Below are positions 10,549 to 49,697 of a stretch of 64,000 bases of DNA, one piece after another (position 1 is the first letter of the stretch; the number at the start of each line of letters is the position of its first letter). The notes beneath the pieces are model-generated. The model was not told the origin of the DNA and did no database searches. It saw nothing but the letters and a program-made list of their open reading frames with translations. Position numbers and translations under genes: made by a program. The stretch comes from Ophelia neglecta (Eukaryota). The stretch covers positions 66,898,001 to 66,962,000 of the forward strand of contig OZ260663.1 of the NCBI GenBank assembly GCA_965285935.1, given 5' to 3'.

Positions 10549-13194
10549 CTACTCCGGTTCCTTCAGACACGCCGACTCGTAATGTTTGTTCAGATAAGAC
10601 TTGAGAGCAAACGACTTGTTGCACCTTTTACACTGATAGTGTTTGAAGGCGGAGTGGGTCTGCATGTGAGCCCGAAGGTTAGAGCGGTCAGCGAAGGCCT
10701 TGCCGCAGTGGGCACAGCCGTACGGCTTGTCACCCGAGTGGGAGCGAAGATGGCCCTGGAGCAACCATGGCCGCGAAAAGGATTTCCCGCAAAACGTACA
10801 GCAATGTTTGAGTTCGTGAGTGAGTAGATGCATGCTGAGGGCGGGCATGCTGACGTAGACTTTGCGGCAGTGGGGACATTTCTTGGCCTGCTGGGAGTCG
10901 AGACTTCGGTGGGTTTGTTTATGCCGGGAAAGGTTCGAGGAGGTGGCGTAGTGTTTGCCGCACTCACTACATGTAAACCGCTGTTTCTTGTCTTCAGTTT
11001 CTACCGGTTTCTTTCGTTTTTTAGAGCGTCCATCGCTGACTAAAAAGGCGTCGTATGTGTAGCCGACAGTGACGCTGTTCTCAAAGTTGGCGTCTGTTTT
11101 CTCAGTCTCGTCTGCCGTACAGAAGTCTTCGGTGGTGCTGGGAACTTCGGACTGCGTAGATGAGGGCGAGGTCGGGGCGCTGTTGGGCAAGGAAACGCTC
11201 TCAGCATCACTCTCGCTCTCTGCTTTGCCCTCCACTCGATGGTCCTGGCAGGGTGTCGGCCGGATCAGTTCACTGATGTAACCTGCAACAGAGAATAAAA
11301 TGGAGCATTGAGGCTCGTAGTCATGTAAGGGATTCAAAGGCACATTCCCTGAGGACCAATTTTCAACATGATTGGGCCTTACATGAAATGGGATTGATGC
11401 ACTGGGTGAGGTATTAGAAATAGTAGCCATTCGTGCACTTCAAAGTGTCAACTAACGGGCTTTGGTAACAGTAAATGAAGGCACAATAATGAAATATGTG
11501 TTCAATACCGCTGTGCTCAGCCAAGCTTCAAATCAGCGCAAGCCTTGGGTCAGGAGGTGGAAGGAAGGTGGGGGTGATTTACCGTAGCGGTAGGGAACGC
11601 AGGAGGGGAGCAGGTGGTCCGACCAGAAGGGCAACAGGTGATGGGAGAGAGATCTGCCGGCGGGCAGTGGCTTACTCCCCGGGCGCACCCGGCCTGCACC
11701 GCACTGTCTGTGGTACCCAAACAACCCCGGGGTCACTAACGGTCTCGATAAGCTCATCTGTACACTATTAGATGCAAGGGAGCAGGTGGGAAGCTGGACG
11801 ACACACAAAACATACCGATAAATGGGGTTTCTATTACACAACGGGCCCAGATATGACAGGCTGGTTACTGCTGTCGTCTGCCGACATTACCGTGTCATTG
11901 TCGAGAAAGGCACCGGTGGAGAAAGTTCCAGAAACGTGATACTGGACTCACCTTACCTTGTGCTCACCAGAGCTACAGGTGAGGCAGCTACCTGATGACT
12001 TTTTAATGAATTGATGAGTAACAAATTAGTCCACCTGAGCACTGCTCCTGCCTTTGTAGGTTGAGATTTCAAAGTGGCTGGCTCAATGTGAAATCAGAGA
12101 GAGAGGCTGGCTGCCACAAGAAACATGTGCACCCATTTCAATGGGGAGTCATTTGGCCAAGGGCGATTACAAATCTACCGTTAAGGCCCATGATTAATCG
12201 AATAAGTCACTAATCATTTGCCTTTCACCGGCTAGCCCATCGAGTTTTTCTTAATACTAGTGCTTAAGCCTACTTCCAGGTACGAAAATTGCATCGCTAT
12301 TCTGGTATGTAGCAAGAACACATAAATTGAGCAATTCTATAGCGCAGAACGCTGCCAAACACGGCATCTGGGGAGAATTTTGCATGCCAAGCGGCCATCA
12401 GTAGATCCTTACCCGTTCCTAAAGACAAGACAGTCAATGGACAAAGACTTACTGAAGCAACAGTCACCCTTCATACGCCCCGATTATTGCCTATGATTGG
12501 CCAATCTCGTCGGAATAAGCACAGAGAAATAGGACAAGATTTCCCGGCCAGGGCATTGTACTGGTCAGAAGCATCATTAGGGACTTTGATAGAACATTTA
12601 TGGCCCGGACTAAGCCTATTTGCCGTCAATATCTCTCCACTCGGCGCTCAGATGAAAGTTACTCCGAAACAAATCTAGCCGAACCTTCCACTCGCATTAA
12701 CAAATCGATACTAACTACTATGTACTTCAAAGGCGAGCCTCCCAAATGCGAACTCTAAATGTTTTCGAAAATAGGAATTTATATATTAGAGCCATTTCAA
12801 TTACTATCGCCACAGTGAGTCCATTCATTAAGACAAACCCTACCGCGTAGTCAAGTGGCAATTCCCTCATTCCCCCTCTTACTATTACATCCATTGACAA
12901 GAATGCCTAGCGTAGCTGGCAATTGCAGCAAATTACCTGGCAATGGTTCATTACGACCCATAAAAGCCTTTGATCCCCGATCATTACATGCAGTATGAGA
13001 ATGTAAATGGGGTACATACCGTTGCAGATTTTAACCGGAAGGGGCTGTGCCAAGTCCGGTGGGGTGTAGGGGGTGGCTGCATACTCAGTCACCGAGGGTG
13101 GTAGTCCCATGTCCCGAAAACACTTAGAGTAGGGACGGGAGGAGTAATCCTCCCCCCTTCTCTCGGCTTTCTTGATCAGAAATGACCGAGGCAT
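10549..13194 (-). CDS. scrt: Scratch-family (Snail superfamily) zinc-finger repressor, paralog A; complement(join(10549..11282,13020..13194)), 302 aa
   Basis: Exon 1 starts with the SNAG motif MPRSFLIKK (ATG at 13194) and ends AAC G|gtatgt. The acceptor ttttattctctgttgcag|GT TAC restores the frame (ICNG/YISE). Exon 2 encodes the Scratch domain GYTYDAFLVSDGRSKKR and five fingers, from [21 protein letters not shown] to [22 protein letters not shown] (last finger C2HC). 175+734=909 nt. Confidence 0.96.
11283..13019 (-). other. Phase-1 GT-AG intron of scrt-A (1737 nt)
   Basis: Donor GTATGT at 13019 and polypyrimidine tract plus CAG acceptor at 11283 on the minus strand; same position as the scrt-B intron. 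Confidence 0.93.
11611..12037. promoter_or_regulatory. Intronic CAGGTG E-box cluster, including a perfect Scratch consensus site
   Basis: CAGGTG/CACCTG at 11611, 11635, 11783, 11976 and 12032; GCAACAGGTG at 11631-11640. Confidence 0.6.
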
Positions 13195-13559
13195 CCTGCA
13201 AACACTCAAGTCCTGTGATTGTGCTACTGATAGCAGCAAAGGCAGTGGCAAGAAGGATTTTCACGCTGGTTTGTCAGATTCCTGACACTCCGCTGCCTTC
13301 CTGTAGCGCTATGAGTTATCCTCGGCAATCGGGAGTCTTTTGAAGGGCGCTGAAGTCTTTAGAGTGAGTCACGGAGAGCCACAAATAACGTGCTGAAGGC
13401 TGAGCTATTGATGTCGTCTGGTGGCGCGCTCCTCTCGCGCCAAACTGTTGCTTCCACAAGTCTGTTGCTGCCGACTGGTTGTGCCTGGTGTTCTCGGTAG
13501 CGTCAACACGGTCAACCATGTAGGCACGGAGGCGCAATCGGCTTTATGGACACACCCGT

Positions 13560-13890
13560 CCGCAATGATCACCCAAGCGCTGTAATGAATATATTTAAAA
13601 ATTAATCTGAGTGCATCTGGCCTGGTGGCACGCACCGTGACTATTCATCCATGAAAACAAAGACGCGCTGCTGAGTCCGCGGTCCGTTGTGGTTCGAGTC
13701 CGCCGGCAGTCCTTTTATCCTCTGAGCTAACGGAGAGTGAATCAAGGGGAAATTAGCCGGGGCGGCTTGCCTACTTCTAGGAATGGAGAACAGATGCGGC
13801 GGGCTGGCCTCGCTCTGTGATGTCATGCTCTGTAGTCATTGTCTCCTGGTCCCCACTGTCCATTTGTCAAACACGGCCAACCAATCAAAG
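13560..13890 (-). promoter_or_regulatory. Putative scrt-A core/proximal promoter
   Basis: Minus-strand TATA-like TTTAAATATA near 13590-13599 lies about 30 nt upstream of an Inr-like TCATTG (A at 13566). CAGATG E-boxes at 13614-13619 and about 13791; CCAAT at about 13881; locally GC/CpG-rich. Confidence 0.5.
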
Positions 13891-16800
13891 CTTGAGACCG
13901 GCTGAAGCATGGGGCACGCGCGGGCATTACATTATTGAGGCAGCCATCCGTACAGAGACTGATATCTAATACCATCGAAGCAGGCCCAGCGGCGGAGCCA
14001 GCTAGCGTAGCGTACACAATCCTACCAGGCCAGCTCGACAAATAGCTCTACTAGTCTCTCACTAGGCCTTCCCTGCCTGCTAGGCATTTCAATGCAAACA
14101 CACACCCGTTGGATCGATGGCACATCGACAACAGACAAGTCCCTTCCTAAATTCGCCACATGCTACTTTCCACGCAACTGGTACTACATAATAGTTGGGA
14201 GTACGGAAAGCCCACCGGTGGCCTCGTTCGCATGCAAACACCTCAAAGACATCTTAAAAAATCAAAAACGTACTGTCTTATTAGCGGTTTAGACAAAACG
14301 TCTGTTCTGAATGGCTGAGCCTTTGGGGAATATTTGCAAAAAAAGAAGCCTATGCCCTAGAGGTAAATGTGAAAAGAGATAAAGGCTTTGGCTCAGAATC
14401 CTGTTTAGGCTGAATCAAATTAAACGGAAGACGCAACAGGCTTTGCGGAGAAGCTTGCCTGGGAGACTGCCTCCTAGCGTCTGTATTTTACGTGTCTCAA
14501 TGAAAGACTCGCTCTTCTTGTCTCAGCAAGGCCAAAGCTCGCCTTTAATAAATGACATGATACCACACAGACGATAAACCTCGATATGTGTTTATCAAAA
14601 GATCTGCCCATAATTGGTTTCCACAAATCTCGTATCTCTCGGAAGCTCAGCGCTCGAGTGGCAAAGACGTCAGTGCGCGTGAACAGCAGACGACATCAGT
14701 CTTAATCCTGTCAGCGAAAAACGGGCGGATAATCAGAAAGGTCGCTTGGCGGAATCAGCAAGGAAAATAGAACGAAAATGATGTTAATGTCATAAAGAGC
14801 CGCCAGAGCTACCTTCACTCCTGGCAAGCTATGATATATTTGGATCTATCGATCTATGGCCGATGGAGCCTCAGTGCAAATGTTTGCCAATTTGGACCAG
14901 GAAAACTCCGTGGTTGTGGGCAGTACGAGAGAGAGTAAACGCTCTTAGCATGTCCTGCAAATTTTCCATGTTAAATTCCGTTGTTGATAGGCCTACGTGT
15001 TGCGTGTCAGGTCTTAAATTTCCAGGGAAAGTCAAAGCTAATCGACGACTGGCGCTCGCCGAAAATACAATTTTCTGCCATAGAGATTGTCCCCGTCAGA
15101 CATTTATTTTGACAGGTGGCAACTGTTGACAGCGGCCTGGCTCGCGTGATTCGCCGCTAATCTCGTCCTTCTCCGCCAAGTCCACTGACGAAGCTTGTTT
15201 CCTTGTTGCCTATCTCTGTAATTCTATAAAATGCTGGTAAATTGGTTGTCTTTCTTCATGTTTCCTTGCTGATACTTTCCACTTTGGCCCGAATGAAGGC
15301 ACGCGATCGCAGCCGGTTGCTTTGTAACCAGATTCCCAATGTGAGTATTAACCCTGACGGAGCTTCTCCCCTTTGCTGTCTCCCACATGCACCAGTCTAG
15401 TAAACGGCCCAGATTGCTTTCCCAGATATACAGTATTGATTTGGAAATGGATCGTCTTATCTTCATACTCAATTGAATTTCATATCCATTCAAAGTGAGC
15501 ATTTGTGCCGAATTTCCAGGAGCCGAGTTACGTGGCGGGCGCTGATGACTCAAGCCATATCAGAGCGATGTCGGCGATGTCAACTGTGGCGCTGTGCCAG
15601 GTGGTATAGGCCAAATCATCCCAACTCAATGGTGAAAAGATGAACTTTTACGACCACATTTCAATGATTTACTACACTCAGCTTAGCACTAAAAGCATGC
15701 TTGCCCTCTGTCTCCTTGTCTATTGTTTCCTCTGGCTATCTTCAGACGTGCATGTCCAATTGGCTTCACGTCAGACAACTCCCTCCTGCTACTTGCAAGT
15801 CGATATGTTAACCATGTTTTGGCCCGTTTTGTTGCTCTGATGGCCCTTTTATGGGCGACTTGGTTTCCTTTTACGTTTAGAATAAGTCGTGAATGGTATT
15901 CATAGTATTACAACATAAGATAACATTCAAAGATTCCAATTTTAGCAATGACATTATCGTCCATAGTTCAAACGGGGCAGCTATAGACAGAAAAACATTT
16001 TTAAACATTTACCATATCGTTCTTGTTGAGTTGCCAGGACCTATGAGGTGGGGTTGATCATGACTGAATCCGGCACTTTGATCAATATTTTTTTATGTAA
16101 GAGATTAAAGGTTTACACGGTACCCGTTCATCACGTTGCCCACCTGTTGGTTCAGCAGTGCTGAGCTCAAACCCAAATGTACGCCATGAATAATGAATGG
16201 GCGATTGTCTGGCCGTCTGAAATCCAAGACGGCACCACGAGAGATCAATGACGGAAGCTGGTATTTCGCCTGTAAATGGTCGGCCTATGTTCAGATTCAT
16301 GATGGAACTGTTTAAGTTGATGTACAAACAACTTGTCGGGCGTAGAAATCATTGTATGAGGGCGAAATAGAAGAGAATCAAATAGACTGCACTCATCAAA
16401 TATTCATACCCCCATTACGAATGCTAAGATCTGCTATGTTGACTGCCTCTAATGAAGGGAGGATGTGGGCAAACACGTGTATTTATACACGGAATTTCAG
16501 GTAATTTATTGCTGTTTCTGGGGACCGACTATAGGCAGAACTAGATTCTTTAGATAATCTGCTGTTTGGGCTAATGTCCAAATTCTAATCTAAGGTATTA
16601 GGAGACTTGTTATTCCCGAAATCAGGAATGGCAACCTTGTCAATGAGAATATAATCATACATAATGAAATCTGTCATCTTACTCAGGGGGATAATAAGTC
16701 ATCTCTGCTTCATACCTTTGATTATCAAATCATGGAAGAGGCTTTACTACCTATATAGACGGCTTTTGTCGAGGAGTTGGGCAAAACATGTACTATTCCA

Positions 16801-17322
16801 AGTTGTCTGGCTTTGAGAAGGCGTCGATATCATCAAAGACTGCTGCTTAACGTGCACTTTTTTCTTTAATAACTCCAAGAAGAATCAAGTCCCTTCATTT
16901 CACGCGGTCGACACTTCATAAAAATAAAAGTCCTCGAAGTATGCAGGTTATTCTTTTTCAAGATTATTCAAGAGAGGTATTTTTGTCCACATTTCAGACT
17001 TGCAAAAACGTGCGGCTTTAAGAGAAATAAGCATTGTTTTTCGTCCATTTACGACAATAATGGGTGTATAAGGTAACATTTCAAAACTTTCAAATATATT
17101 TCTTGAATTGGTCTATTGGGCAGACTTTGAAATTGAAAGAAATTTAAAAAAACGACGTTATCTTTTGTGACCGTCATAGATTTTGTAATCACCGTTTTTG
17201 TGGTATTTGTCAAATAAACATTATAGTCTAGAAGTACTTCGATAAGGGTATAAAGTTTTCAAACTCTGCATAGGTCCTTTGCCTTTGTCATTAAATTTAA
17301 GTTGACTACGCCCCGCTTGCTG

Positions 17323-17491
17323 CACAGGGGTTCGTATCTGCAAGTTAAATTAATATTCATAAGGTAGCTCATTAATATATAGTGCTATAGCAGACGACTA
17401 CCAGTTATATTGGTAGTCGTCTGCTATAGCACTATATATTAATGAGCTACCTTATGAATATTAATTTAACTTGCAGATACGAACCCCTGTG
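17323..17491. mobile_element. Palindromic (foldback) MITE, 169 bp, with 8-bp target-site duplication; P- or hAT-superfamily-like
   Basis: Perfect 81-bp arms (17323-17403 and 17411-17491) around a 7-nt loop GTTATAT, flanked by the direct repeat GCTTGCTG (17315-17322 and 17492-17499). Termini are CACAGGGG...CCCCTGTG. Confidence 0.9.
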
Positions 17492-18977
17492 GCTTGCTGT
17501 AATAGTTCTAAATAACTTTTCCTCCTCATGCAGCTGTATGCAAATGGGCGTTGAGGCTAGTTAAGAATTAGTTATCTTTGACTAACCCCTTTGAACCAAA
17601 ATGGATAGTTAATTATAGTCTGTTAATTGCCCCAAAACATCCTAACGGTCCCACCTTGCACCTTGAGTTGAGTTGACAAGGTGCACTGTCAAGCAGTGTA
17701 TTCATTTAAAAAGTTGAAAAAAACCTTTTGAAGTGTTCATGGTTATTTCAATCACATCCTAACACCTTTCTTTGTCAAACACCCGCCATTTTGTAGCTTG
17801 TCGTGGAGGTGAACAGTTTAGAGGGCCATGAAAAGCAGATGACAGATGCTGGGCGATAATGGATATTCTAGGAACTCTGTTTAACTGCAGAACGCCTGTG
17901 TCATCATAGCATTTCTATACAGGCGGTCCCGCCCGACTGACTCTGGCACGCTACACCTGCCCTCTTACCAACTGTCGGTGATTCAAGTGCCCTTGTGAAG
18001 TCCTGCACGGGATGTTTATCCTCGATTTATACACACTTAAGACCATCAACGAATATTGATAATTAGCTTTCATTGTATGGTTGGTTATTTACGAATTTAA
18101 CAGCTAATCAAATCGGTCGTCTGATCGTACTGTCTGGTATGGTGGGCTATTTGAAGAACAATGCAGCAGATTTTGAGACTTTCCGATTGCATCAATACGA
18201 TGGTGATTGGCGTATCTGTGATTGAAATCTGGACATTGCATTTAACATTTGTGTGCATTCATCCAGCATGTCTATGGTTAACAGTTCATATTAAAACAAA
18301 GAACATGTTCGCCGACTTGATGCTTGGACAGAGGCGATGGAAAAGGACACGGTGAAAAATTCGACAACACAATGACAAGGGGTAGATACGGGGCATGCTA
18401 AGGAACTGACTCCATTTAAATTACAAAAGAAACTTTCCCCGACTGCATGTCTGTCTCTCCCAGGCTTATTAGTCCGAGTCGCGGGGTGTCCTCCGAGATA
18501 CTGGAGTCCCCGTATAATGAGAAGAAGGTGACACGAGTATAATAGACATTTTTGCCAGTCGAGCGTTTAATACAGTTAATATGATGGCCGATGCAGTGAT
18601 TTAGCGGTTGTGTAGCTGCCTGATAAGATTGTAACTATTGACCTGTTGAGTTGGTGGAATTGGAGGCCAATGCTCTCAAGGAGGGGGACATTTTCGCTTA
18701 AAATGGCAGTATCGTACCAATGACTTGTAAGAGCACCAGTCTGTTCAACTACCCTAGTGGACACACATGGTTATAACACAGCTTTCTTTCATGATAACAA
18801 AGAGCAGGTGTCGAAAACCGAGACTAGTTTCTTGGGGTGCCTGGAAGGACTGACACTGCAGTTATTCGTTGGTTCTAAGATTTTCGAAGAGAGGGGAGAG
18901 GATGACCTATCGTGGTGAGGGTGTGGGATGGGTTCCTGCCACAGAGGGGTGTCTTAATTTGTCCATAGGGTCCAGGA

Positions 18978-19084
18978 CCCCCCCCCCCATTTCTCCCCCA
19001 CCTCTTTCCCCTCCATCACTCCCCACCCCTCCTTCCCCTCCCCCACTTCCCACCCCTTTCTTCTCCTCTCCCCCTCCTCCTCCG
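18978..19084. repeat. C-rich, nearly homopyrimidine low-complexity tract
   Basis: About 105 nt of mostly C/T with many CCC+ runs (G-runs on the minus strand). Confidence 0.8.
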
Positions 19085-19141
19085 GCTTATGGGGGAAGTG
19101 GAAAAGGGCTCTCATACCACTCTGTCTAGAGACTCTCTGGA

Positions 19142-19332
19142 CAGTGGCGGATTCAACCCCCCCCCCCCTTTTTTTTTCCATAAAGTGGGCCTGGACCAGG
19201 GCCTATTTCTTGACACACGCAATGTAGTTTCAGATCGAGGGTTGGTAACGGGGCCAATCCAAACATTTGCCTTGTCAGCCTTGGAAAATATGCCCCCCCC
19301 CCCCCCTTCCTAGAATTTTGGATCTGCCACTG
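19142..19332. mobile_element. Short non-autonomous DNA element with CAGTGGCGGAT-type termini (hAT-like), decayed
   Basis: Starts CAGTGGCGGATTC and ends GGATCTGCCACTG (imperfect inverted repeat); internal poly-C tracts; no recognisable TSD. Confidence 0.55.
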
Positions 19333-22300
19333 CTGTAGGCTGTTAGAAGGGGTAAAGAAAGGGGCGGCCGGGTCTTGACCCCCTCGCCTGCTCTAAATCA
19401 GCCTGTATACAATATTAGAGGTTCCACGAGCTTGGCTCGGTACCGATAAGCCAAAAAATTGTGTTTGATAATATTTTAATGGTGTTTTAACAACTCTTGC
19501 TTGCTATGTTGGAGAATCGTTCAATTCAATGTATTTGCCATTATAGGCCTACATGTTTTTAGGGCAAAATATGCCCATAATGATGTCTACGCCTTCCTGC
19601 CGGCCCATGTAGATGTAACGTCCTTGTCATTTTGTTAATTCTATCTGAAAGTAGCGTTTATCTGAAAGCTCTAAGGTTGCCGGCGATAACCGGCTTGTAA
19701 CTCGATACAGGATAAGAAATCCTACGACATGCTGCCGGACCAGACAATACCAAAATTGGATGTCGGAGAAGCTTTTCTGCCAATTAACCTGTCACATTTC
19801 ATCTCCTAATTCTACCTTTTGTGTTTGTAGAGCAAATATAACTATAATTTGTATAAGAAGACCTTATGCTCTGTGATGCGGCTAGGACACAGCTTGGGAT
19901 ATTCGGAAAATTAAAACCATAGTGACATGTATTGGATTATGAGCAACACGTTTGACAAGCGTTAATCCCGGTTAGACAGTTCTGGCTCGTGTTGACCAAC
20001 GCGCACATTTGAAGGTCATTCTCCATTTTGACAGACACGCGTCTCACCAGGCTCACGTGCGACATCGTGACAGAGGAACCAGTCATCTGCCACGAGGGAC
20101 ACACTATCACACGAGGGTCAAAGTCCCTGGTGTCAATTCAATGGCTAAAGTGCCCCTTGTCCTACTCAAACAAAAAAGTTATCTGACAAGTTTACTCCAC
20201 TTCCAGAAGTCGAGCTAGGTAAACTTTGTCACTTCATTATAACTCGTTAGAGTGGCTCTTATGAAGGATTTGTCTTCAACGATGACCTCCTCAGTAGAGG
20301 AGACCAAACAGTGTTGTTTGAATTGGGATTTGATTATATTATATTATTTCAGAGCCCAATGTCTACATCGAGCGATCATTTAAAGCGAATGTAATGCTTT
20401 TTGATTGCCATACATCCCTCTTACATCTTTTTGTAAATGCAGAGTTTTGGTAATTTAGAAACGTTAAACATGTGCTTCAATACACAAGCCATTTGTTTTT
20501 GTAGCGATGTAATATTGAAGTTTGTTGTAGTAAAATAGTAAAACTGTTTTTAAATACTATTCCATAGCCTATAGGTGAGTTTTCCACTGAATGTTTGAAT
20601 AATTTTAAGCTGTTTTGGTTGTCTCCAATCCTGGAATTGTAATAGTTAAGCCATTTATCAGAACATCAGCCTATCATACGTCTTTGATTTAATGGTGTTG
20701 ATGGTTTGTTAATCAGCGGCCTGCAGGCATTGCCAGGCAGACAGCCACACGAAGCTCGCCATTGTTCTCCGTGCTGCTTTCCCAGGGGAAAGTCGACCCG
20801 ACCACCAGTTGAGGAAATTGGTTGGGGTTTGAGGAGGACAGCAGCCTCAATCCTGGCTTTTGGCACTTCCTGATACAAACACACTCCTTTGGTCGTCTAG
20901 CATGCCTGGTCAGCACGGCGTGTCGTCACGGACGCTGAAGAACTCCATGCGTCTGCGCACTGGCCCGGCACGTGGCCGGCAGGCGGACAGGACAATGGAC
21001 GGTCACGCCCGACAGCTTAGACTGACAACTAAGCAAAACCCACCTGAGGCGATAATGTACATCTCTACCTGCCATCAACAGGCTTTGTATAGTGTCAAAT
21101 GCACTGGGCTTGTCAGAGAGATAAATGACGATTTGCTTGATCACCAAACCCCTGAAGCAAGCACACTTTGTAAGCCTTAACCAATATTCGTTTGTTTGTC
21201 CCTCTTCCATCATGTTAGACCGACTAAAAGTCACTTGTGATGACAGGCCTGTCAATGTCCTTCATCCAAAAGTACAGGAGAGATAGAATGGTATAAACTC
21301 AGGTCGTAGATGCTCCAATAGACATCTGATGAATAGTTTCTATTTATATGTGTTATCATTTAAAACAAATACCTTGGATCCAATTCATTGTCTTGGAAGT
21401 TGAATAACGGGATTACATACCCGACAGGAAGTGCAACATTAACTAGGAAACATTTATTAAACCGTCCGGGTTTCATCAGGATAAACCGGCTGCATTTGCA
21501 CATAGGTATGAAGATGCAAAGTTAAATTTAGGTATAATAACTGAAAACATGTTGCAGCGATGTTCTTGAAGCTATCTTCTTATGTGTTTTCACTTTATTT
21601 CAATCATAAAACGTGTTGGTTCCTTAAAGCCAGTGATTGTGTACCGTCAGGTGTATCAGAATCAGATACGGCGTGAAATTGACTTGTTCCCGGTCCAACG
21701 AAAGCCGAGCTTAGGCGTCAAAATGATGTACAACTAATTCTTCCTGGGGGATTTCGAAGCGCGTGTATTTGTTGCCGCTAGTCGTCAATATGATATGCAC
21801 TCTCATTTGGAGCTTTAATAGCAGCATATGAAATGTTATGATGAAGTATGAGTCTTGAGCAGATTGAGTCGGTTAATTAGGTCACACGCTGGAAGATTGA
21901 GCATTGCTGGTGAAGATATTTTAGATGATGCAAGCTAGTTTGGCTAGCTATAAACTATCCCTGACAGTATGTTTCGTAATACCTGTTGGTTCAGAATGTA
22001 ATATTCTCAAGATACGCAATAAAGCATGACATAGAATATGTGCAGTAAATATTCAATATTATTTGGAAATTTACTCAAAATCTAATAGTCTAGTATAATA
22101 CATGCTAATCTTCAAATAACAAACTTTCTGAGCATGTTGCTCACTCTGAATAATGAGCTTCACTTGTTTGCTATTCTTCTGGTAAACCTTTTTTAGGGCT
22201 ATTTTATTTGACACGCAGCTAATAAACCGATCGATGGGTTAGGAGCTTTTAGTTCTATCTCCGATAAATTAATAAAAATTCCCAGCTCCTTAAAAATGGC

Positions 22301-25300
22301 CTGAGCTTAAATCCATTCTTTGCATAGTGCACCCGTGATTTTGGGAAAATCAATTAATGTTTGCACTGAGCTCAAGCAATGCATCTTCATTTGCTTGTGG
22401 GTGCTTCTTTCCTTCTGAATATCAAATGAGTAATTTGAAACTTAATAAGAGAAGAAAAATGAGACGCATGCTAATTAGAGCGGGTGACTCATAACGATAT
22501 CATTATAGACATGCAAAGAACACCCACCCGTTTGGCGGAAAGACTTCCCTTTCGCTGCATTATAGGATGAATTTCGATTTTTTTAAACTGAAGAACGTCG
22601 ATATAGTCTTACAACAATTATAATGTTCGTCCAAATATTTCGAAGTTTATGGTTTTACTTTATATAGCCAGGTGATTTACATACAAAGTACCCTTGATTG
22701 TTTTCTACCTCAGCCTTATCGTTTACTTGATAAATGTTTTCCTAATCACCAAACACGGGATATTGTTCGTCTGGACAACTGTACATCAGTGGCTTTTATT
22801 AACAGACCTTCATGCAGTCCGTGTGGGCGGATGCAAATATATTGGTGACATGTCTAAATACCATCGTGTTACATACCTCATCATCCCATCTGAGTGGTAA
22901 TTGTTTTCTTTGTGTTGAAATTCTCGCGAGTTATGTTCCTAATGCTAGTTCATACTGGGGATCCATAAGCGCTGTGGAAGATCAAAATGTGTAATATGTG
23001 GATTTTTTTTTCTTTCGTTCTCATGTCTTCTCCGATGATTTGAGGAATGCATGCACCAGACTATCACCGGGTCAGTGAACAGGTGTTTGAAGGTCCTTGA
23101 GGACCTTCTCGCATGTCTGTACTACGGGCCTGGTCTTTGTCTGCAAGCTGCACTATGTCGCTTTGTCAAAATTCATTAACATTGCACTTTATTCTAATTA
23201 AGATCGAATTAACAGTATTTCCTTGCATATCTGTACCCATTGTCATCATCAGTGATGTAATGAACTCACGTGGAATTGGCAATGGGGTGACTTCCGAAAG
23301 AGTCCGTCAGCCATGCATTATTCATCGCCTCTAATTAGGAATACATATCACTGCGCCAAAGGAAGGGATAAATCATTGCGCGGCTCACCTGTTTGGAAAG
23401 TTGATGAAAAATGTCATCACCAGTGAAATTAATATGGGTCTTCTGAGGTTTAAATTGCCGCAAATTTATGGCTAGCAGCGACAGGGGCCATATTTCAGAT
23501 GACACATGAAGGATTCTCAGGCTTGAGAACAATAGAGCGATTGTGGACAAAAGCAATTTGGTTAAATCACGGGTTGAAGATGCAATAATCAGACAAATGC
23601 AGATGGAGAGGTTGGGGTTGAGAGTATAAATGTCGGCTGATAATGTGATGAGAAGGATGAGAAATAGGGGTGAGGGGCGGAAAATAACGTGACGTCACTC
23701 TATTAGACATCAGACGACAGGCCACGAAAACGAGTAAATTCAACTGCCCCAATGGCAAGACCATAGGTGACGAGGTCTTTAGGCCTATTCATCTAGCTGG
23801 ACAAGACAAAGGCAATTATTACACACACAATCAAACTGAAATAATTTGGCAATACATCTTACAGTTCTATATTGCACACCAATCTCGTCAATTCATTATC
23901 GGCAGGTGTTTCTCATTTTATAGAGAATTAAACCAATTCTTCCTGAGCAATGCTAACGGACTTGAACAGTAACGACTGTTATCAATTTAATGACATGAAC
24001 GCTATTCCCATTCACACCTCTAAAAAACAACTGAAAGCTTCTATTTTAGAGATCCTTTTTCCTTCCTAATCCTTTCGTAGAACAAGTCATTGACAAGGGG
24101 CGTAATTTATAAGCGTTCATTGCACTCAACACAGATTCCTTTTGGGTATTGCAAACTACCATGTAACAGATATCGTTTCTAAAATATTTCAAGCCGTGAC
24201 ATAGTCTGTTAACTCTGAGGGGCTGGTGTTGACTTCCCGCGTGACTTTTACTGGAGGTAAGTACAAAATGACCATCTGTCGGCAGGTCACAAAACACCCA
24301 TCCAGATAATTATCATATTAATGTTGTTCCCACACACTCTTTATTTCCAATTCTGGAGACTTCAACAGAAAATATATCCTCCATTTACGAAATACTGAAT
24401 CCAATGATAATCGATACCCTCACTGTCGGCAAGTTTTCTGATTGGCTGATATGATTTGATTCGTTGGTATGAATAGTGGTGTACTCGCATCGCATCATCA
24501 TGGAATAGGCCAAATGTCACATACACGACTAATATTGAAATCTTTGTACACTGTAGGTATATACATTGAAACAGCTATCATGGACCTTTTAATACCGATA
24601 CCAGATATTAGTTAGATTTCATGAGCAACAGCAACACTTATGCCAGGTAAAGATATGACATTGGAAATATCTCAAAAAAAGTTTGACATGTACAGTAAGA
24701 CTTTTTACAAAGGGTTACTGCGCCTGCGAGATTGACATGCATGTCATCACGTGGTTTGACCGAGACTCTCGGCTCAGCCTGTCGCCTAAATAAGAACACA
24801 CGAACTTTTTACTATCTGTTCGTAAACCTCGCGTCACTCGATCCATTACACAGTGCTCCTGAACATAGGTGTGCATGGGTCCGGGGGGTCGGGTCCAATT
24901 AACTAACTATCATAATGATAATTATAGGAAATGCCATGACTATATAAAAAGAAGATTGCGGAGGAACTCGCGAAAATGAAAAGTTTCACAATGTGGGAAA
25001 GCAAAGGCAATGTCGCTAAACTAAAACTGAATTCTACCCTGGTATCTCTCTTAGCTCTAAAATTTCTTTACCCACATTATAGACGCAATACCGCATTTAG
25101 ATATTAATTTGATAGGAAAACATTTTAACCGATAAAACCTGCCCGGTTTTTAAACTTAACAATTTTGTTTATCTTTCATTTCATTAAATCATCTGAAGTT
25201 CTGGACACACTGAACCAATGTGTCCAGAACTCCAGTTTCAAACAGACAAACAAACAAAAATACAGATTAGTTAATTTGTGCATTGTGTTTTTAATTATGT

Positions 25301-25695
25301 AGTGGCACTAAAAATTCTCAGAAAACCAAAAAACAAACAATTTGTTAATTGATGTTGCCTCCTGCACCCTAGTTGTGGCCGGTCAGATGGTTTGGCGTGG
25401 AGGAGGGGGGGGGGCTGTAAAAGACACTCGGCAACAGGAGACGTCTCTCCCCTAAATAGTCGTGCCGCAAGGAACCGATCCTAGAATGGACATCGACCGG
25501 AGGAGTCAAATTCATAGTGAACGAAGCCTACATGTCAAAGAGAGCGTGCCTCAAAGGAATTACATTGATAAATGAGCACATCCCCCAAAAAAGCTAGTCT
25601 TATGGAAGAAGGAATGACACCGTTACATGAAAATTATGTAAGCGTGTCCCGCATAAAAAAGCTCTGGAGGACTTAGGTTCTGACAAGAAAGCTAG

Positions 25696-26874
25696 CTCTC
25701 TAGAGGAAGCAGCCCCTGAGGGATGGACTCTGAAGGACACAGACTCCGGGGCAAGCCTGTGCTAAGGAAAGGACTCTGGAGGAAGCTATCTCTAAGGGAA
25801 GGACTCCGGAGGAAGCTAACTCTAAGGGAAGGACTCCGTAGGAAGCAATCTCTGAGCGGAGGACTCCAAAGGAAGCAATCTCTAAGGGGCGGACTCCGAA
25901 GGAAGCTACCTCCAAGGCAAGGAATCGGAAGAAAGCAGCCTCTGAGTAAAGGACTCTGCAGGAAGCAATGTCTGAGGGAAGCACTCCAATGGACATGGAT
26001 TCTGTGGATAGGACTCCGAAGAAAGCTGACACAGAGGAAAGGTCTCCAAAAGAAACTCCGGGGAAGGACTCCCGAAAGAAGCAGCGTTTGAGGGAAGGAA
26101 TCCAAAGGAAGCAGCCCCTGAGGAAAGCAATCTCTGCGGGGAACACTCAAAATGATGCAGACTCCGATCGAAGGACTCTGATCGAAGGACTCTGATCGAA
26201 GCAGAATCCGAGGAAAGGACTCCAAAGGAAGCAGACTGGGGGAGGACTTCGAAAAAAGCAGAATCTGAGGGGAGTACTCCAAAGGATCCAGCAACGGAGT
26301 GAAGGGCTCCTAAGGAAGCAGACTCGGGGGAAGGATTCAGAAAGAAGCAGACTCTGAGGGAATGCCTCCAAATGTTCCAGAAACGGAGTGAAGGACGCCA
26401 AAGAAAGTAGCCATCCCAAAGAAGAATGAAGAAATGTATTTCAATAAGCAAATTCTAAGGAAAGCACTCCACAGGAAGCAGATTCTGTGGAAATAACTCC
26501 AAAGAAAGAAGTCTTCGAGGGAGGGCTCCTAAAATTGGGGATCGCAGGGAATGACTCCAAGGAAAGAAGATTCTGATGGAAGCAATCCGAAGACAGCAGA
26601 CTCTGAGAAAAGGACTCCGAAGAAAGCCGACTATGAGGATATGCCTTCAATTAAAGCTGACCCTAGGAAAAGGACTCCGAAGTAAGCAGGCTCCGAGGGA
26701 AGGACTGCAAAGGAATCAGACTGTGAAGTAAGGATTCTAAGTCAAACAGACTTGGAGGGGAGAACTCCGAAGGAAGTAGACTCTAGGGGAAAGTCTGCGA
26801 AGGAAGCGACACCGATACATAAGAGCGGATTCTGAAAGCAATACTTCCGAGGGAAACAGAATCCGAAGGAAGCC
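25696..26874. repeat. Degenerate purine-rich 30-bp tandem repeat, roughly 35-40 copies
   Basis: Consensus about aggactccgaaggaagcagactctgaggga; the 30-nt period is clear at 25770-26040 and gives 10-aa periodic ORFs on both strands. Confidence 0.9.
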
Positions 26875-27474
26875 GGGGGATTACGCCACGTACATTGGAA
26901 AAAAGTTAGTTTTTAGGAAAGTGGATCCTTGCCTTTTTGTACAAAAAGAACTTGGTAAGCCGCACTAGCATTTCAATATTGTGCAAATTTGAATGAGCTA
27001 ATGACTAGCGCCCATGGGGAGCGGGGCGGGGGGGGGGGGCAATATAATAGATTTATATCCTCAAAAGCGAATAAAAAGCCCTCTCATATTGAAATGCGCT
27101 TTTAGTTAATCAATAGGCTCTGTATCAGATGATCACATTGAATTTACCTTCAAATTGAACTCAATAGTCAGGTTATATTACTATATATTCATATTTCTAG
27201 GGACTGGTAGGTCTATTGCAGTGCATCTTATAAGAACCGTAAGTGGTTCCACCCGACCATATTAGAGACATACCTACAATTAAAGTATATTCGCGGAGCA
27301 CTATCAGAATGTTGATATTTACACAATTCAATAAATAGCCTTTTCGTATGGTTAAATCAACATCACCCCCTATATTTTGATGAACCAACTAATTACATGC
27401 CTCTGAGAACTTAGGTTGCTGATCTTTCAAAGTTTTATCCCTCTAAACACCCCTGGATAGATTCTTACTAAGAG

Positions 27475-27631
27475 ACCAATCACGTCTCAGAAACCTAGTA
27501 AAACTTTCCCCCAACCAATCACGTTAATCCAAGTCTGATATATAAAGGCCAGCGGCATGTAGAGAGAGACAGAGACCGACACAGTAGAATAAATACATTT
27601 AAAGTCAAACGTTGTTCGTTATTAGGTAAGT
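27475..27631 (+). promoter_or_regulatory. Orphan Pol II promoter-like module with a downstream splice donor
   Basis: ACCAATCACGT twice (27475-27485, 27514-27524), TATATAAAGG at 27539-27548 and a consensus donor AG|GTAAGT at 27624-27631. Confidence 0.5.
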
Positions 27632-29271
27632 TACTTAGATATGGCGATGCTCTAAAATATAACATCATACACTACCATCAAACGTCCAAATATAAGACAA
27701 GGACTGTCTTATAGCACAATGACTTGTAGCAAGGAATATTCTGATAGCCTACCTAAAGTGAAGTAATCGGGCAAGTTGTAACACGGGAATGAAGCGAATA
27801 CACTGTATTACTTCATTATTATATCTGTAGACATTTCCTTTACTGTGTGTCTTTTGACTACAGGTTACTTATTTGTACCCCCCCCCCCCCCCCCCCTCCT
27901 CCTTCGCCATTTAATGGTTTGTCCCATGGATGCAAAGAGCTTCCGACGGTCGAGGTTTGTGATTATGGCTACTACAAAACTCTTAAAGGGATTCAATATC
28001 ACATAATAGTCACATGTATGCCTAAAAATCCCCATCCAAAACGTAAGCAAAACAAATATCGTAATCCGAGCTCAGTTTCTTATTGGTTCGCCTGCTTCGA
28101 TTTTTCTAGAATGTGCATGCTGTGGTAAATGGCACCCACCTTACTTATTACACCGGCGTCAAGAATACCTATAGATACCAGTCAATGACCATTTAGCTAA
28201 CAGGAGAAATCATATAGCATATTGATCGGCTGCTGCTTAGAAAGGTATTTGCCTCATGTATATATAGGAAGAATAAAATGTGCATTCCATTGACAGAAAA
28301 AGTTAAGGAGAGGAACAATGTTCTATTTGGAACGAATTGTTAAGTGCTGTCCAAAATCGAGTTTTTGTTAACTAAGGATATCCAAAAATTCTTCAAGGGG
28401 TAACTGGTGATATTTCCAGGGTAATTCTATGCGGTAATAGATTTTGCAATCGCCTGTCAAATGATTTGCTGATTAGTATATATAAGAAACTAGATACCCC
28501 CTGACCACACTATAATGTATCGCAACTTCGCGCAAATACGGACTCCATAAATATTGTATCACCTATGATATCTCCGGTTACGTTTGGCATAACGACGGAC
28601 GATCAATACGGTGACTGTTGCATCTGGCGGGCTTCTTGGGTCGTCTGCTTTTAAAACGCGCGCCTCCACGAATCAATCTCTCGCCAGATGATACCTTTTA
28701 GTTAATTTGGCTGATGGTATCATGTTCTAAGCCTGTATAGAGAAATGTCATAAGCCAATACTCTATAGATGTTAAAGTAAGTTACGGTCGTTAATATCAT
28801 CGAATAAGTTCAAGCAAAGAAATGACGGGCGCTAAGCTCGTTAGAGAGGGAATTACGGCGGGCTAAGAAGCAGATCACAGTAGAAATCTGCCTGTATGTT
28901 TTATAATTACTCAGGGAGATGTGTCGGAGGTGGTTTCAGTGGTCATGTTTACGAGGCGTTGAGCAGGACACCAGTTGCCGACTTATTCCCCACACCTTCA
29001 TCATATCGCCTGGGGCTCTCGACACCAAACTGCCTTTACAGACACCCGATCCGCCTCTATTGTCGCCTGAGAATGAAGCACCTGGTCCGGCAGAAATCTA
29101 CTCGGCACCATTCAAACACTGCAATATGGCAGAAAATGATTGCTGCTTTGCTAATCTCATTTCATTTTCATCAAGGATGACACATTGGTTTTAATCTGGT
29201 AGATTCCATATGGCTACTGGGTAAGCAGTAACGAGCTGTCTGAAGATGATGCTTTGTGGTCACGACACGCT

Positions 29272-29332
29272 GACTGGCAGGGACTGCCAGGGACTGCCAG
29301 GGACTGCCAGGGACTGACAGGGACTGACAGGG
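29272..29332. repeat. 10-bp tandem repeat, about 6 copies
   Basis: (ggactgccag)3(ggactgacag)2 plus a partial upstream unit. Confidence 0.9.
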
Positions 29333-32300
29333 CCGCCGATCACGCCATCATCAAAACTACAAAATAATGTGGCAAACCAGATTACAGATTAACTTTGTTA
29401 TTTCACAGACTTGTGATCAAAAATATATCAAGAAGTCGACAATCGTAAGCCTGCCGAGTCAGCTACTTTCACGTTTTTTCGACATGATTGATTGATTCAA
29501 TGGCATTTTGTTTAGTGGCATTTATGTTTTAACTAACGTGAATTGCATGGTCGACTCAGGTATAAATATATAACCATAACACACCAAAAAGGTTTGACTT
29601 TCAGTGTTGATTACAAGAATAATATCTAAAGGCACCCTCTTTAGTTCCAGCAGGGGCTGAATGTATCAAACGAGGCTTTTTCTAAGTGCGTTGGTAGTTT
29701 TCACCCTCATAGTCTATCAATAACCTGACTCCATTTTATTCTTCTTGCTTTCCATTTATCTATGATTTTTCATAAAGCTACGTTGTGTTTAAACACCTGC
29801 TCCTGAACGCCGGCGTGAAATAACGCTACCTATATACTATATAATAAATAGGGTGAAATTCTATATATATAGGGCCTATATATACATTTATGTATATATG
29901 TGAATTTACTAAGAAATGTGAAATGTTTGTAAAATTGTGGAAATGTCAAGCTAGCCCCCGAGTAATAGCAGCAAAGAAATAGGAGGGAATTAGAAAGTCC
30001 TTGGTCAAATATGTTTATGTTGCTTTTAACAAAGGGGCCATGCGCCCTTTGAGGCCCGGCCTCTGGAGCACGAATTAAGGAAACCTGTTGTTCTACTTTC
30101 CCTTGATGTAGTTGAAGAAAATGTGTTTTTGACTTGTTAATAGCTATTAGACCTCATTCGAATTTGATAACTTCTATCGATACAAATTTGTCGCATTATT
30201 GTCCTTCTTTGGAGCGAAGGTAATGCTTTAAGCTTGGATTGTGTTCACCTGTTAATTCACACCCAGTTAGACGGACACGTGCGGTTGATAGTTTTCATCT
30301 AGGCCTGGGTGCCGACAAGATTCTTAACGATCGCCTGTGTTCCTCTCCCGCTCTATGTGTCGTCTGCTTCAATGGCCTTTGTCTCTTCTGAATGTCCTCC
30401 TAGGAATGTCACCTATAAGGTAACGTTTTCTCAATGACATTTCTTTATACACGGTGTACGCAGAATATATGAAGATACTTTTGATGGGAAATATCATTGG
30501 ATCGTAGAAGAAGCGTAGACAATTCCCCAGGAAACCTCGTGTCACTGGAAAACCTATAAATATTGTTCAATACAGTAGATCTATTAAGCCCAAAGCGAAG
30601 GTTCTCTTAGTAAAGAAAGTGTAGATCTATATACATCGTCATCTGCTTCAGACTATTAACGAAAAATTGCCAAGCCGTTTATTACGTCGTGTGAAATTCA
30701 AACTGCACGGCTTTCTCCTTTTTAATATCCTATTCCATTATAAACTCAATAATTAATTGTTTGTTCATTATTTATTAATAGGTTTGATTCATGTGCAGTG
30801 TTTTATTTATCACGGCCAGCTGATGGGCGCATTTCGGGGAATCGACAGGTGGTCGGCTCGGCCATAACAAAGCTAATATTGTCCATCAAAGTTTATGGGA
30901 ACATTTTACAAAAGGTCAGGCAAGGTTCATAATAATCAGATTTTCAAGTGAACCACACAACAAAGACCTTCAAATGTCCAATTTCCCGCGGCCTTATCGT
31001 TTTGACATTAGTGAGATCTGCAGACCGTGGGCAGAAATTGTTTTTTTATACCGCACTTCAAAAAGCCATAATTATATGAGGTAAGGCGGATTGAAGTCGC
31101 GATGAATGACACAAAAACTTAACGTAGCTTCCACTGTTCTCCGAAAGGGCCACGTTTGTGAGCCATGGGAAATGAGGGGGGCTGAAAAACGGACCTGTTA
31201 TATTATACACATTCATGTCTATTAGAAAATCAAATATTTTACGCAATGGACCACAAAGACCTTTTTGAAATTTGAATTTTAAGTTATGCATTGTGTTGTT
31301 CGAGTAGAGTTGTGATATAGTGCGCGGTAGGTGTCGAGTGTGCTCCTGCCACGAGTCTCACTGTTAAGCAGTGTCAACTCGACAAAAGATGACACTCGTC
31401 CTCTCCAGATTCCCAGGCAGGACCGTGGGATATTCCTAGCTAGAACTTTTATCACTACATACAGGTGTTAAAAAGATCCATTTGAAAATAACCAGTTCAT
31501 AACATTGTTTGGTGGCGATTTGTCAAATTAATAAGTACTTGTCAACGGGTTCAGTTACGGTAATGTATTTATTGAATTTCGCCTCTCTGCTGTTCTCAGT
31601 CCAGACTATATAGTTTGTGTCCTCCCTGTCTTAGCCCGTTCCTCTGTGTTTGAGTTATTGAATATCAATGTCATTAGTCTATTGATGTCTTTGTCTCCTG
31701 GAGCCCCTTCGGCCACAAGAACACATGTTGTATCGCTTGTTTCCCCAGAGGCGTTCCCCATGGTTTTCAATTACCAAACATGGCCCAAACACAAAGTATG
31801 AAGTCGTTATATCTAATGTTACACTCGCCAGTTGTGTCCGTTCTCAGATGGTGCGGAGGCGGCGAGTCCGTCCAAGGAGGTGGCCAGTGTATTCTACACA
31901 TTCACCTACTCAGCTTCCAAGAATTTACAAGAGAACCGAGTCAATAAATAAATATAAGCCACGTTCTCTCAAATACGTAATGATCCATCGAACATGCCTC
32001 GGGCATTTTGTTTGCAATTGTCTATTGGCTTTTCATCCTCGTCAATGAATATTATCCATTTTTTTATTTTCTTTGCGGCAAATATTGGCCAAACAACAAC
32101 ATAAACTAGGAGACCATATATATAATATCATACGTCAATATCAATCACAAGTTCAGACACACCATATTACCGTACATCAAAAATAATAATGTGTGTACAT
32201 TAAATTGTACATCTGTACCAAGTCGTGAAAAGTTAGCATCGGGGCGCCTTGTATCACCAGGAGAAAGCTATGTACTCGATACCTGAAAATGGCAACAGGT

Positions 32301-35300
32301 ATGGGAAATTGTGAGTCATTTCGACCAATCGATTTTTTGATACCCTGTTGAGTTTCTTTCAAGATGTTGAAAGAAGCACAGTGGATTGGAGAGGAGGGAA
32401 AGCGCCGAGGGAACAGGAAGGTCGACTCGCCGTATATAATCACCTAATGAAAGAGTTTCGCGGAATGACCAATAGCCAAATTAGTCGTCGGCAATTCCCC
32501 TTCGGGAGTAATTGCATCATTAATATAATGAGCGTAAAGTGAAGTGGGACACCGTCAGGGGTATTTTCCATGGCCGAGCAATAGGCTTGAGGTTGCCAAG
32601 GTTATACTCCAAATACATGTAGAGCCTAAATATATATATATACTCTGGTGAAACTATTTTGACGTAAAGAATCAAATTATAGATAGATCTATATAGCTAG
32701 ATATGATATAAATATCGATAAAAATATCGATATCGATATAGATATAGATATGACAACAACCGAAGAAATATTTCCTGTGCAACCGATGCAAAGTAAACTG
32801 TTGTTATTGGCGGAAGAGGAGTGTTTCGTAAGGGTTGGGTGGGTGCTATAGTGTCTGTCTAATGGCAGTGTCACACCTCCCGGAAACCATGTGAATTTCC
32901 GAGATGCCAGCCTGCCAGTGGCGTTTTGGCGAGATGTCAGCACGAATCGCCTAGAAACAAGAAGTTTGGGTCGCCTGCGTTTCCGGGATTCGTGGAACTG
33001 ACACTGTGACACAGTTCGACCATCTGGTGTCATTCATCCCCTGCAATATTGCCTCATGGCTACCACTGCAAATGACTTTAATGTTACAGTACTCATCCAT
33101 AGGTACACCGATACCTATACAAATAACCGTTTTATACTGAATAAGAAGCTTCGTGGACTTCGCAAAGCTTTAAAAGGGCAGTTTTGATATAAACCATCCG
33201 GTGGGATAGTTCTACTCATAGAGCCTACCACATGAAATTAAACAAGTTGTACAAAAATAATAGGCGTCAGTATCGGCCGAAATGTAACTCTGCTCTTCGT
33301 CTCAGCAAATTATTATTGCTGAGAACATGCCATTGCCACTCCAAAGTCTAATGAAGTTCTTCTCAAGTATATAAAGTGAACTGTTGATGACACTGCACGC
33401 CACGACGGCACGACTTGTCTGTTGCCATGGAGCAGTTATTGAATTTTAGGGCAATTATGCATAATTTCCTGCTCATAATTCTACTGACACCTCCTAGCAG
33501 CCTTTGGAAAGATCTTATAACTGGTTTCTACCTGGCTGGATTTACTAATTTACCTGGTCAAATCGGCCGTGAGCTACTATAATGAAATCACGGCAGATTG
33601 GCCAAGGACCAAGCAAGAACAAAGCGAAAACCGTCAAAAGGAATTAGGGCGGCTGATTAGGGACATGCCATCAAAGAAGGCATCCCCCGCTGAGCTCCGT
33701 ATGGACCCGGTTTGTGCTGTTTTACCGGTATAGCCTTCAAACACCTCACTACCACACCACCTGATGCTAGATTTGGTAATTTGGGCGGTCCGATTCTAGG
33801 GGATGAAGACCCGACGCTGGCTTTGGCTAAATGTTCTTTTATGTATATCAGCGTGCCATTGTTTACAGCCACTCGATGGAGTCATTAGAGGCTTTGTCAG
33901 ACTTTCAGGTGCCCCCACAACTTTATTCAACAAAAACGTCATGCTGAGAGGTGGGCATAGTTCACTCCATAAATAGTTGGAGATACAATACTCTCTGATG
34001 ACCGAGGGGTTGGGCCGGGGTGCAGATGTGTTGTTTAGACTTTGGGGACTGAAGAGCATTGTTCCTGGCTGATCCTACCAGTCTCACAGACTAAAGATGT
34101 GCTACTGAGGCAATTTCAGTGATGGCCATTGAGTACTTGGCTTGCATTTTAAAGGGAATTTGGAATGAATTTAGCATGAATCACATTTCAGTGTTGATAT
34201 AATCGACCACTTCTAGCTGGGTAATGATCGCTCCTCTGTGAGGTGGCACGACGAGATGTTTGGAGAACAGGTCTCTTTCTCGAATTACCGACAATTGACA
34301 AACTGTCAGCTCGGTGTTTGTGATCCATCGTTGCCGAATGTTTCGATTGATAGCGAAACTGATTCGCGATCTATAAACAAGGAAAGTGGAGACAATTCAA
34401 ATGTCTCCTTGTTTTAACGGCAAACCTTTTGGCACGTGGCTGTCACATTGCCCTGTTCAAGGCAAACAATATCCGAAATTACGGACGGTTAAACATTACG
34501 TTTCCGAGTGAAAACAATACAGCAATTGGCGTAGCGCCTGCACAAAGGTTGATCTGGGCAGGTGGGGTATAGGTAATCCCTTCGGGCTGAAATCACAACA
34601 GGTGGCCCGCGTCTCGGTCAATATTTTCAAAACAATTGTTGGCCAAGAACAAGTTGTGAAAGTGGCAGACGGAGAGGGATTGGCTGCTCATGAATATGGA
34701 GTTTGGAGTCGGTGAAGTTCGAGGAACCTGTTGCCCCGGTATTAGCTCTACCACTTGGAGGGCTGGTAACTACTCCATCAACAATTCAAATGTTAATGTT
34801 GGCGAAACCTCTGTTGAAAGCCGGGCATTAAAGGATTTTGCCACATGTCATTTCTCAGCAATGATAAATACATCAGAATTATCCGGCGATTGTGCTAACT
34901 GATTGGAATGGCCTCGTCAAGTACACGGTACTTGTAAATATGTTTGATTCTGATAGAAACACACTTCTATGATAATTTCATCAAAGCAAGGGTCTCCCTG
35001 TCAATGTGAAAAACTGATTTAAAAATCAAAGAAAACCACTTTAATTAATAACGGTGCACATTGTACAAACACATTATCAATATTCTAGATCTAGGCCTAT
35101 TGGATGATTCACATTTGCTTTAAAGCTGGACAAAGCGGGTATAAAGTCTTAATAGTTATAGTTTCCCCACAAATTTTATTCTTTATATTGGGGGGGGGGG
35201 GGGCGTTATGGACACGCTCGTAACGGTGATCCAAGCAGTACTGAGATCGGGAAACGTTTGAATAAGGTTTACTGTGTTGAGGATTTATTAGTGAGGTTCA

Positions 35301-36859: not shown

Positions 36860-37022
36860 CAGTGCAACCTGGCTTAAAGGCCACTTCTATATTCAGATCG
36901 CCTGTAAATTCAGAACACTGATATAAAGACCAAACTGTACCATTCCAATGTGAAATATCCTAACTAGATCAAGCCATTATTTTTACAATCCCTTGGGTGG
37001 TCTGAATTCCATGGTTTCACTG
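36860..37022. mobile_element. Tc1/mariner/pogo-type MITE with TA target duplication
   Basis: TA|CAGTGCAACCTGG ... CCATGGTTTCACTG|TA: CAGT-starting terminal inverted repeats flanked by TA on both sides. Confidence 0.7.
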
Positions 37023-49633: not shown

Positions 49634-49697
49634 TCAAATTATGCTTTTTAGAAGCAATAATTCCATCAAATTATGCTTTTTAGAAGCATTGATTCCA
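49634..49697. repeat. 32-bp tandem duplication
   Basis: tcaaattatgctttttagaagcaataattcca followed by tcaaattatgctttttagaagcattgattcca. Confidence 0.85.

Follow-up and report, generated by a model that had tools for sequence, protein, structure and literature searches.

Silent-site patchwork in a head-to-head scratchB pair of Ophelia neglecta suggests recent gene conversion confined to the zinc fingers

The window analysed here, a stretch of 64,000 nucleotides of the Ophelia neglecta genome (GenBank assembly GCA_965285935.1, contig OZ260663.1, positions 66,898,001 to 66,962,000), contains two scratchB genes arranged head to head, gene A on the minus strand and gene B on the plus strand (Table 1). 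The genes are saturated at silent sites outside their zinc fingers, and within the fingers they share a tract that is identical at 92 of 95 nt and at 26 of 28 silent sites. From comparison of the sequences we consider it probable, at roughly 0.8, that this tract in the otherwise saturated pair arose by interlocus gene conversion that is recurrent, short and restricted to the fingers, and that the copying was recent. The stretch of gene A concerned is itself likely to be a recent conversion tract.

Table 1. Features of the scratchB pair in window coordinates (position 1 is the first nucleotide of the window)
Feature	Position	Strand	Remarks
Gene A predicted exon 1	13020..13194	-	ATG at 13194, GT donor; SNAG start; 3' end falls in a codon that the intron interrupts
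Gene A predicted intron, 1737 nt	11283..13019	-	GT-AG ends; no alignment to gene B intron
Gene A exon 2, coding part	10549..11282	-	SCRATCH domain and five C2H2 fingers
Gene A SCRATCH domain	11020..11070	-	6/15 silent sites identical to B, saturated
Gene A zinc-finger block, 139 codons	10561..10977	-	to B: 354/417 nt, 84/122 silent
Main tract, gene A	10829..10923	-	end of finger 1, linker, finger 2; finger codons 19-49
Diverged patch, gene A	10735..10828	-	finger 2-3 linker and finger 3; codons 50-81: 11/24 silent, 7 aa differences
35-nt identical run, gene A	10640..10674	-	end of finger 4; within wider 10642-10734 stretch, 23/29 silent
Spacer between start codons, 43.3 kb	13195..56473	.	tandem repeats
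Gene B predicted exon 1	56474..56672	+	begins with SNAG; 0/8 silent sites in SNAG identical to A
Gene B predicted intron, 530 nt	56673..57202	+	position and phase shared with gene A
Gene B exon 2, coding part	57203..58011	+	SCRATCH domain 57472-57522, five fingers 57565-57981
Main tract, gene B	57619..57713	+	
35-nt identical run, gene B	57868..57902	+	own contig, ~2x depth, three public runs

The predicted spliced frames encode products of 302 aa (gene A) and 335 aa (gene B). Both first exons open with an identical 9-residue SNAG motif, as in named scratch homologs, and Pfam assigned no family to either of these exons. Both genes possess a SCRATCH domain that aligns to named scratch proteins, a domain preceding finger 1 that the available sections of Kerner et al. 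(2009, PMC2688512) describe as confined to ScratchB. They also possess five C-terminal fingers of scratch type, which match zf-C2H2 and whose best named homologs are annotated as scratch. The best named homologs of the pair come from annelids, nemerteans and molluscs and are scratch proteins, the top one for gene B being a Paralvinella protein. In the 762-Mb genome the scored matches include A and B as the only scratchB genes, a single scratchA-like gene (L003) and a cluster of three snail genes (L004-L006). The combination of SNAG motif, SCRATCH domain, five fingers and linked paralogs resembles the scratchB family as portrayed in the same sections of PMC2688512, and one scratchA-like gene with several snail genes is also the count given there for Capitella. 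L003, located at about 54.97 Mb on contig C5, is scratchA/CES-1-like and lacks the SCRATCH domain. It shares its contig with the snail cluster and with genes A and B, all of them inside ~20 Mb.

Self-blastn between the two genes yields a sole match, which covers the SCRATCH-finger region (10559-11072 versus 57983-57470, 81%); introns, exon 1 and flanks gave no alignment. The initial annotation had reported the 95-nt tract with 92 matches, and self-blastn returns the same count; the tract has only two copies in the genome. Of its three differences, those at finger-block codons 28 and 40 are silent and the one at codon 38 is an Arg/Gly replacement. An identical 35-nt stretch previously noted at the end of finger 4 is present as described (codons 102-113), and so are all eight synonymous differences listed for finger 3, which account for 8 of its 13 degenerate codons. 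The accompanying statement that finger 3 is equally conserved in protein holds for its second half only, as codons 51-62 contain six amino acid differences and codon 77 one. These six replacements sit in the finger 2-3 linker and where finger 3 begins. Across the five fingers, A and B have the same helix residues save for one Leu/Met difference.

Silent identity was counted over codons with the same degenerate amino acid in both genes, and the values expected at saturation are site-specific, derived from 35 GC-matched control loci. Outside the fingers, silent identity is 0/8 in the SNAG motif, 3/9 in the exon-junction motif and 6/15 in the SCRATCH domain, a saturated total of 9/32. Along the finger block it amounts to 11/16 in codons 1-18 (6.3 expected), 26/28 in codons 19-49, which constitute the main tract (14.0 expected), 11/24 in codons 50-81 (10.1), 13/19 in codons 82-101 (8.5), 10/10 in codons 102-112 (4.8) and 13/25 in codons 113-139 (12.7). 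Fingers 3 and 5 stand at the saturation level, the tract exceeds it with P=2.9e-7, and codons 82-112, with 23/29 identical, exceed it with P=1e-4, both values being uncorrected. The fingers as a whole differ from the other blocks (84/122 versus 9/32, p=4e-5 by Fisher's exact test) and continue to do so after removal of the tract (58/94 versus 9/32, p=0.002). The lower divergence of the whole finger block suggests older, overlapping conversions.

A permutation test that scans all segments is significant with p=0.002 over the 154 alignable codons of the gene. Confined to the 122 finger codons, the scan-corrected test yields p=0.107 and 0.129 and does not reject uniform divergence, and other within-finger statistics range from p=0.007 to 0.60. 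Among these, window-variance tests give p=0.007-0.03 for windows of 15-28 codons and 0.11 for 40 codons. Longest-run and sum-of-squares tests in the fingers are not significant, and the longest-run test for the 35-nt run alone gives p=0.60 in the fingers and 0.29 gene-wide. Uniform dS, which the initial annotation named as evidence against exchange, is consequently rejected for the gene and not for the fingers taken alone (p about 0.1). Its proposal that short conversion tracts homogenise the fingers is supported insofar as it concerns conversion of finger DNA (26/28 in the tract, and the gene-wide test), while the second, 35-nt tract is not independently significant. Seven of the 26 shared tract codons are rare at their sites in the 35 GC-matched controls (frequencies 0.12-0.24). 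Silent and replacement differences between A and B are weakly co-located (p=0.096). No GC enrichment or GC-biased signature was found in the tract, and no signal of donor direction.

For comparison with distant scratchB genes we used the best 80 of 463 related loci from a metagenome scan; collapsing near-identical loci left 63 distant ones, and L091 (broken alignment) and the scratchA-like L003 were dropped before the counts. Conservation of the tract in distant homologs, to which the initial annotation also pointed as an argument against conversion, is not found among these 63 loci. Compared with A or B, these loci have a pooled silent identity of 0.39-0.40 in the tract (maximum 0.71), or 0.44-0.45 for the 35 GC-matched loci, and the tract is no more similar than the other segments. 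Taken over all segments, their silent identity with either gene reaches at most 0.55, compared with 0.69 between A and B themselves, and the best 95-nt window of A or B against a distant locus contains 87 identities at most (126 comparisons). Among control pairs with similar total identity, 4 of 42 attain a window of 92/95 and another attains 91. Three of these four are presumed paralog pairs, and the fourth, L041/L043, is a presumed ortholog pair with its window in fingers 4-5. Of 1953 control pairs, 21 contain identical runs of at least 35 nt; some of these pairs are distant, and runs between distant loci measure 35-50 nt. Gene A has unusual codons in finger 3, where its identity to the controls is 0.33-0.34 compared with 0.44-0.49 for gene B, and part of the finger-3 contrast is therefore due to gene A.

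The snail cluster of the same genome provides a second instance of local identity among linked paralogs. As assembled, the three snail genes lie on C5 at about 47.72-47.76 Mb. L004 and L005, on the same strand and 23 kb apart, are identical at 27 of 27 silent sites in codons 106-134 and share an identical run of 73 nt (L004:1835-1907 and L005:1835-1907). L005 and L006, head to head at a distance of about 16 kb, are identical at 55 of 64 silent sites in codons 29-101, with identical runs of 47 and 42 nt (L005:1663-1767 versus L006). The scan test gives p=0.001 for L004/L005, 0.003 for L005/L006 and 0.11 for L004/L006. The partner of L005 changes along the gene, with informative sites shifting from 30 supporting L005/L006 versus 10 supporting L004/L005 to 1 versus 26 (p=0.0005 by MaxChi). 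Such a conflict among three sequences is one that neither constraint nor a single recent duplication would produce, and the snail trio would by this measure be a stronger case for conversion than the A/B tract itself.

Comparable mosaics occur in scratchB genes of other animals. The scan test gives p<0.05 in 5 of 8 presumed paralog pairs compared with 1 of 7 presumed ortholog pairs, all of these control pairs having been selected after the tables had been seen; 3 of the 8 presumed paralog pairs have no mosaic. L026 and L032 (L026:5001-5504, L032:5001-5510) lie on one contig in tandem and in the same orientation, and are identical at 38/41 silent sites in codons 81-124 versus 40/76 elsewhere, with GC3 of 0.41-0.49. 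Four scratchB types (L026, L032, L017 and L018) were observed under one assembly prefix; L017/L026 have 37/49 silent sites identical in codons 53-108, and L018 has no tract.

Another clade contains two paralog types that are distinct in finger 4 and the upstream region, each of them present in many loci. In fingers 1-3, two of 140 cross-type pairs stand out, L047/L069 with 78% and L041/L087 with 87%, the rest showing 22-60%. Both pairs drop to 57-59% in fingers 4-5, the high part covering codons 1-81. Fingers 4-5 support the type-2 clade (100/97); fingers 1-3 reject it (AU p=0.006, a result partly exposed to base-composition pull). L047 and L069 are sisters in fingers 1-3 (99/99) and are rejected as sisters in fingers 4-5 (AU p=1.4e-9), and the grouping of L041 with L087 is not rejected in fingers 1-3 (AU p=0.40) and is rejected in fingers 4-5 (p=1.4e-5). 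L085, an apparent chimera, was excluded from the AU tests. This locus (L085:798-1361) and the proteins P0018 and P0061 seem to join an N-terminal part from one paralog type to the fingers 4-5 and C terminus of another, and are either assembly jumps via identical tracts or natural recombinants. Several spiders possess two scratchB types with different linkers and almost identical fingers (P0023, P0103, P0032, P0075). For the spider proteins the finger tree rejects the type-1 clade (p=2.6e-8), and the linker does not reject a spider clade (AU p=0.42).

Several other explanations of the A/B pattern can be envisaged. The finger block could have been homogenised only once, by a long conversion or by a crossover of the inverted arms that swapped the 3' ends, or it could simply evolve more slowly throughout, so that the patchwork is sampling noise. 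The scan-corrected values within the fingers (0.11-0.13) agree with this possibility, as does the excess that the fingers retain after removal of the tract. We nevertheless regard it as unlikely, given that fingers 3 and 5 stand at saturation (11 versus 10.1 and 13 versus 12.7) while the tract stands at 26 versus 14.0, and given the window-variance results at 15-28 codons. Selection acting in this lineage on the DNA or RNA of the tract (an exonic enhancer, transcription-factor or splicing sites, or codon optimality) could maintain identity with no exchange at all. The tract is entirely exonic, with no intron available as a neutral witness, and some ortholog-like control pairs have a window of 90-92/95 in fingers 4-5, which points to local silent constraint in some clades. 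Against such selection, which appears rather improbable to us, speak the absence of tract conservation in the 63 distant loci, the lack of an unusual RNA fold (z -1.21 and +0.18) and a tract GC3 (21/29 and 20/29) similar to that of the remainder. In addition, different pairs have their high-identity segments in different fingers, and the switch of partners in the snail trio would be left unexplained.

A recent duplication whose N-terminal parts diverged fast, again with no exchange, would give similarity throughout the gene, which is contradicted by the Fisher test, and the silent sites of the SNAG, junction and SCRATCH segments are saturated and introns and flanks unalignable. Gene A and gene B do have in common, at finger codons 81 and 138, two residues that are rare in a set of 42 homologs. 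An A+B clade is absent from protein trees of 44 rows, built on 40 linker columns or 139 finger columns, and is rejected in neither region (AU p=0.73 each). On balance we consider a recent duplication very unlikely. An assembly or polishing artefact in which one paralog was overwritten by the other is scarcely credible in view of public runs. Contigs built from short words of three such runs, all of one sample, were compared with both genes; they carry the gene A alleles across the tract and differ from B at the same three sites, and 0.92-0.98 of the sampled words of gene B are found in those runs. Because the three runs reproduce the gene A variants, collapse by the assembler is excluded, although the runs may derive from the assembly's own sample and the contig for the 5' part of gene B is missing from those displayed. 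The 35-nt run forms a contig of its own at about twice the depth of its surroundings in each run (80 versus 35, 100 versus 30, 24 versus 12). Five further runs (X4-X8) contain 0.04 of the words, the X4 contigs being fragments at <90% identity. In one of the three runs (X2) a one-letter difference was seen at the gene A stop codon (window 10549-10551), in the loose end of a contig; it is either an allele or an error.

Recurrent conversion could account for the pattern as follows. Purifying selection on the five fingers would hold about 420 nt at 85% identity (354/417), and finger DNA of this similarity could template repair between the two arms, which lie on one chromatid at a distance of 47 kb. 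From established gene-conversion biology, tracts of tens to about 100 bases would be copied now and then. Each copied tract would wipe out silent and replacement differences locally, after which the identity would decay. The patchwork would then reflect the ages of successive events, with the finger 1-2 tract the youngest, the start of finger 1 and finger 4 probably older, and fingers 3 and 5 long unconverted. Regions outside the fingers would be too diverged for exchange.

The mechanism itself is well known, and A/B is likely a further case, in the Snail/Scratch superfamily. The closest parallel is Dlxa/Dlxb of Capitella teleta, where the accessible text of McDougall et al. (2011, PMC3199776) describes gene conversion in the DNA-binding domain of a linked pair. 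As in that account, A and B are developmental transcription-factor genes of an annelid, linked and in inverted orientation, with high silent identity in only part of the DNA-binding domain, the rest being divergent and short secondary tracts doubtful. The Capitella genes differ, according to the same text, in being tail to tail and of homeobox type, with 100% identity that reaches into the intron (a 150-bp GENECONV fragment). Hexapod engrailed/invected, cited in that text as an example of concerted evolution, offer another parallel: there too conversion affects the DNA-binding domain of linked transcription-factor genes, in this case of the homeobox family. The scratchB genes are head to head and encode C2H2 fingers, and their tract is the weaker case when taken alone because it has 3 mismatches, is wholly exonic and lies on arms separated by 47 kb. 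Recognition of conversion reportedly turned the 'independent duplications' of engrailed/invected into one old pair; for A and B this step is plausible only. In the portions consulted of PMC3924837, a peak-of-divergence model is presented for duplicates under conversion, for example red/green opsins. The diverged patch, with amino acid differences clustered in the finger 2-3 linker and early in finger 3 next to homogenised DNA, resembles that model. Unlike the model as set out there, A and B show no sign of selection on their differences, the helix residues being nearly unchanged and the co-location of silent and replacement differences weak.

In the open-access literature, to which our search was confined (subscription papers being outside its scope), we found no report of gene conversion in the Snail/Scratch superfamily. 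In the portions available, PMC3342872 contains the search terms in its references only, and PMC10455198 does not address conversion. Using trees that draw mainly on the fingers, the sections available of PMC2688512 infer at least 7 independent duplications of scratchB and at least 10 of snail, and interpret linked paralogs as the products of recent tandem duplication. The supported groups in these sections are nearly all paralogs of the same species, which is explained there by proneness to subfunctionalisation; the words 'conversion' and 'concerted' occur 0 times in the text of the paper.

Gene A and gene B can be called old in the sense that their silent sites are saturated and their introns and flanks unalignable. 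The SCRATCH-linker of gene B is 78% identical to the Paralvinella protein, compared with 55% for the best match of gene A, a contrast that would fit either an old split or faster change in A. A search with the non-finger part of gene A for orthologs of A type gave 12 candidates, none of which scored. It is plausible that A and B are an ancient pair that looks recent in finger trees. A wider scenario, possible though doubtful, is that clustered Snail and ScratchB paralogs undergo recurrent finger-restricted conversion across bilaterians, and that many 'independent lineage-specific duplications' are a few ancient tandem pairs, of which A/B would be one. If so, finger-based trees would be biased towards same-species paralog groups and old scratchB duplicates would look young, orthology and expression comparisons between species would be misassigned, and paralogs would retain one binding specificity while their regulatory and N-terminal parts diverge. 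Because the pattern recurs in the snail cluster of the same genome and in scratchB pairs of other animals, this scenario is directly testable with chromosome-level genomes that are already available.

No ATG-initiated open reading frame of at least 150 aa is found in the 43.3-kb spacer. At window positions 41272-44222 it includes a tandem array in which a 96-bp unit occurs 31 times with 95% identity. Open frames of up to 382 aa occur on the minus strand of this array, which is probably non-coding. A degenerate region of 30-bp tandem repeats occupies window positions 25742-26815.
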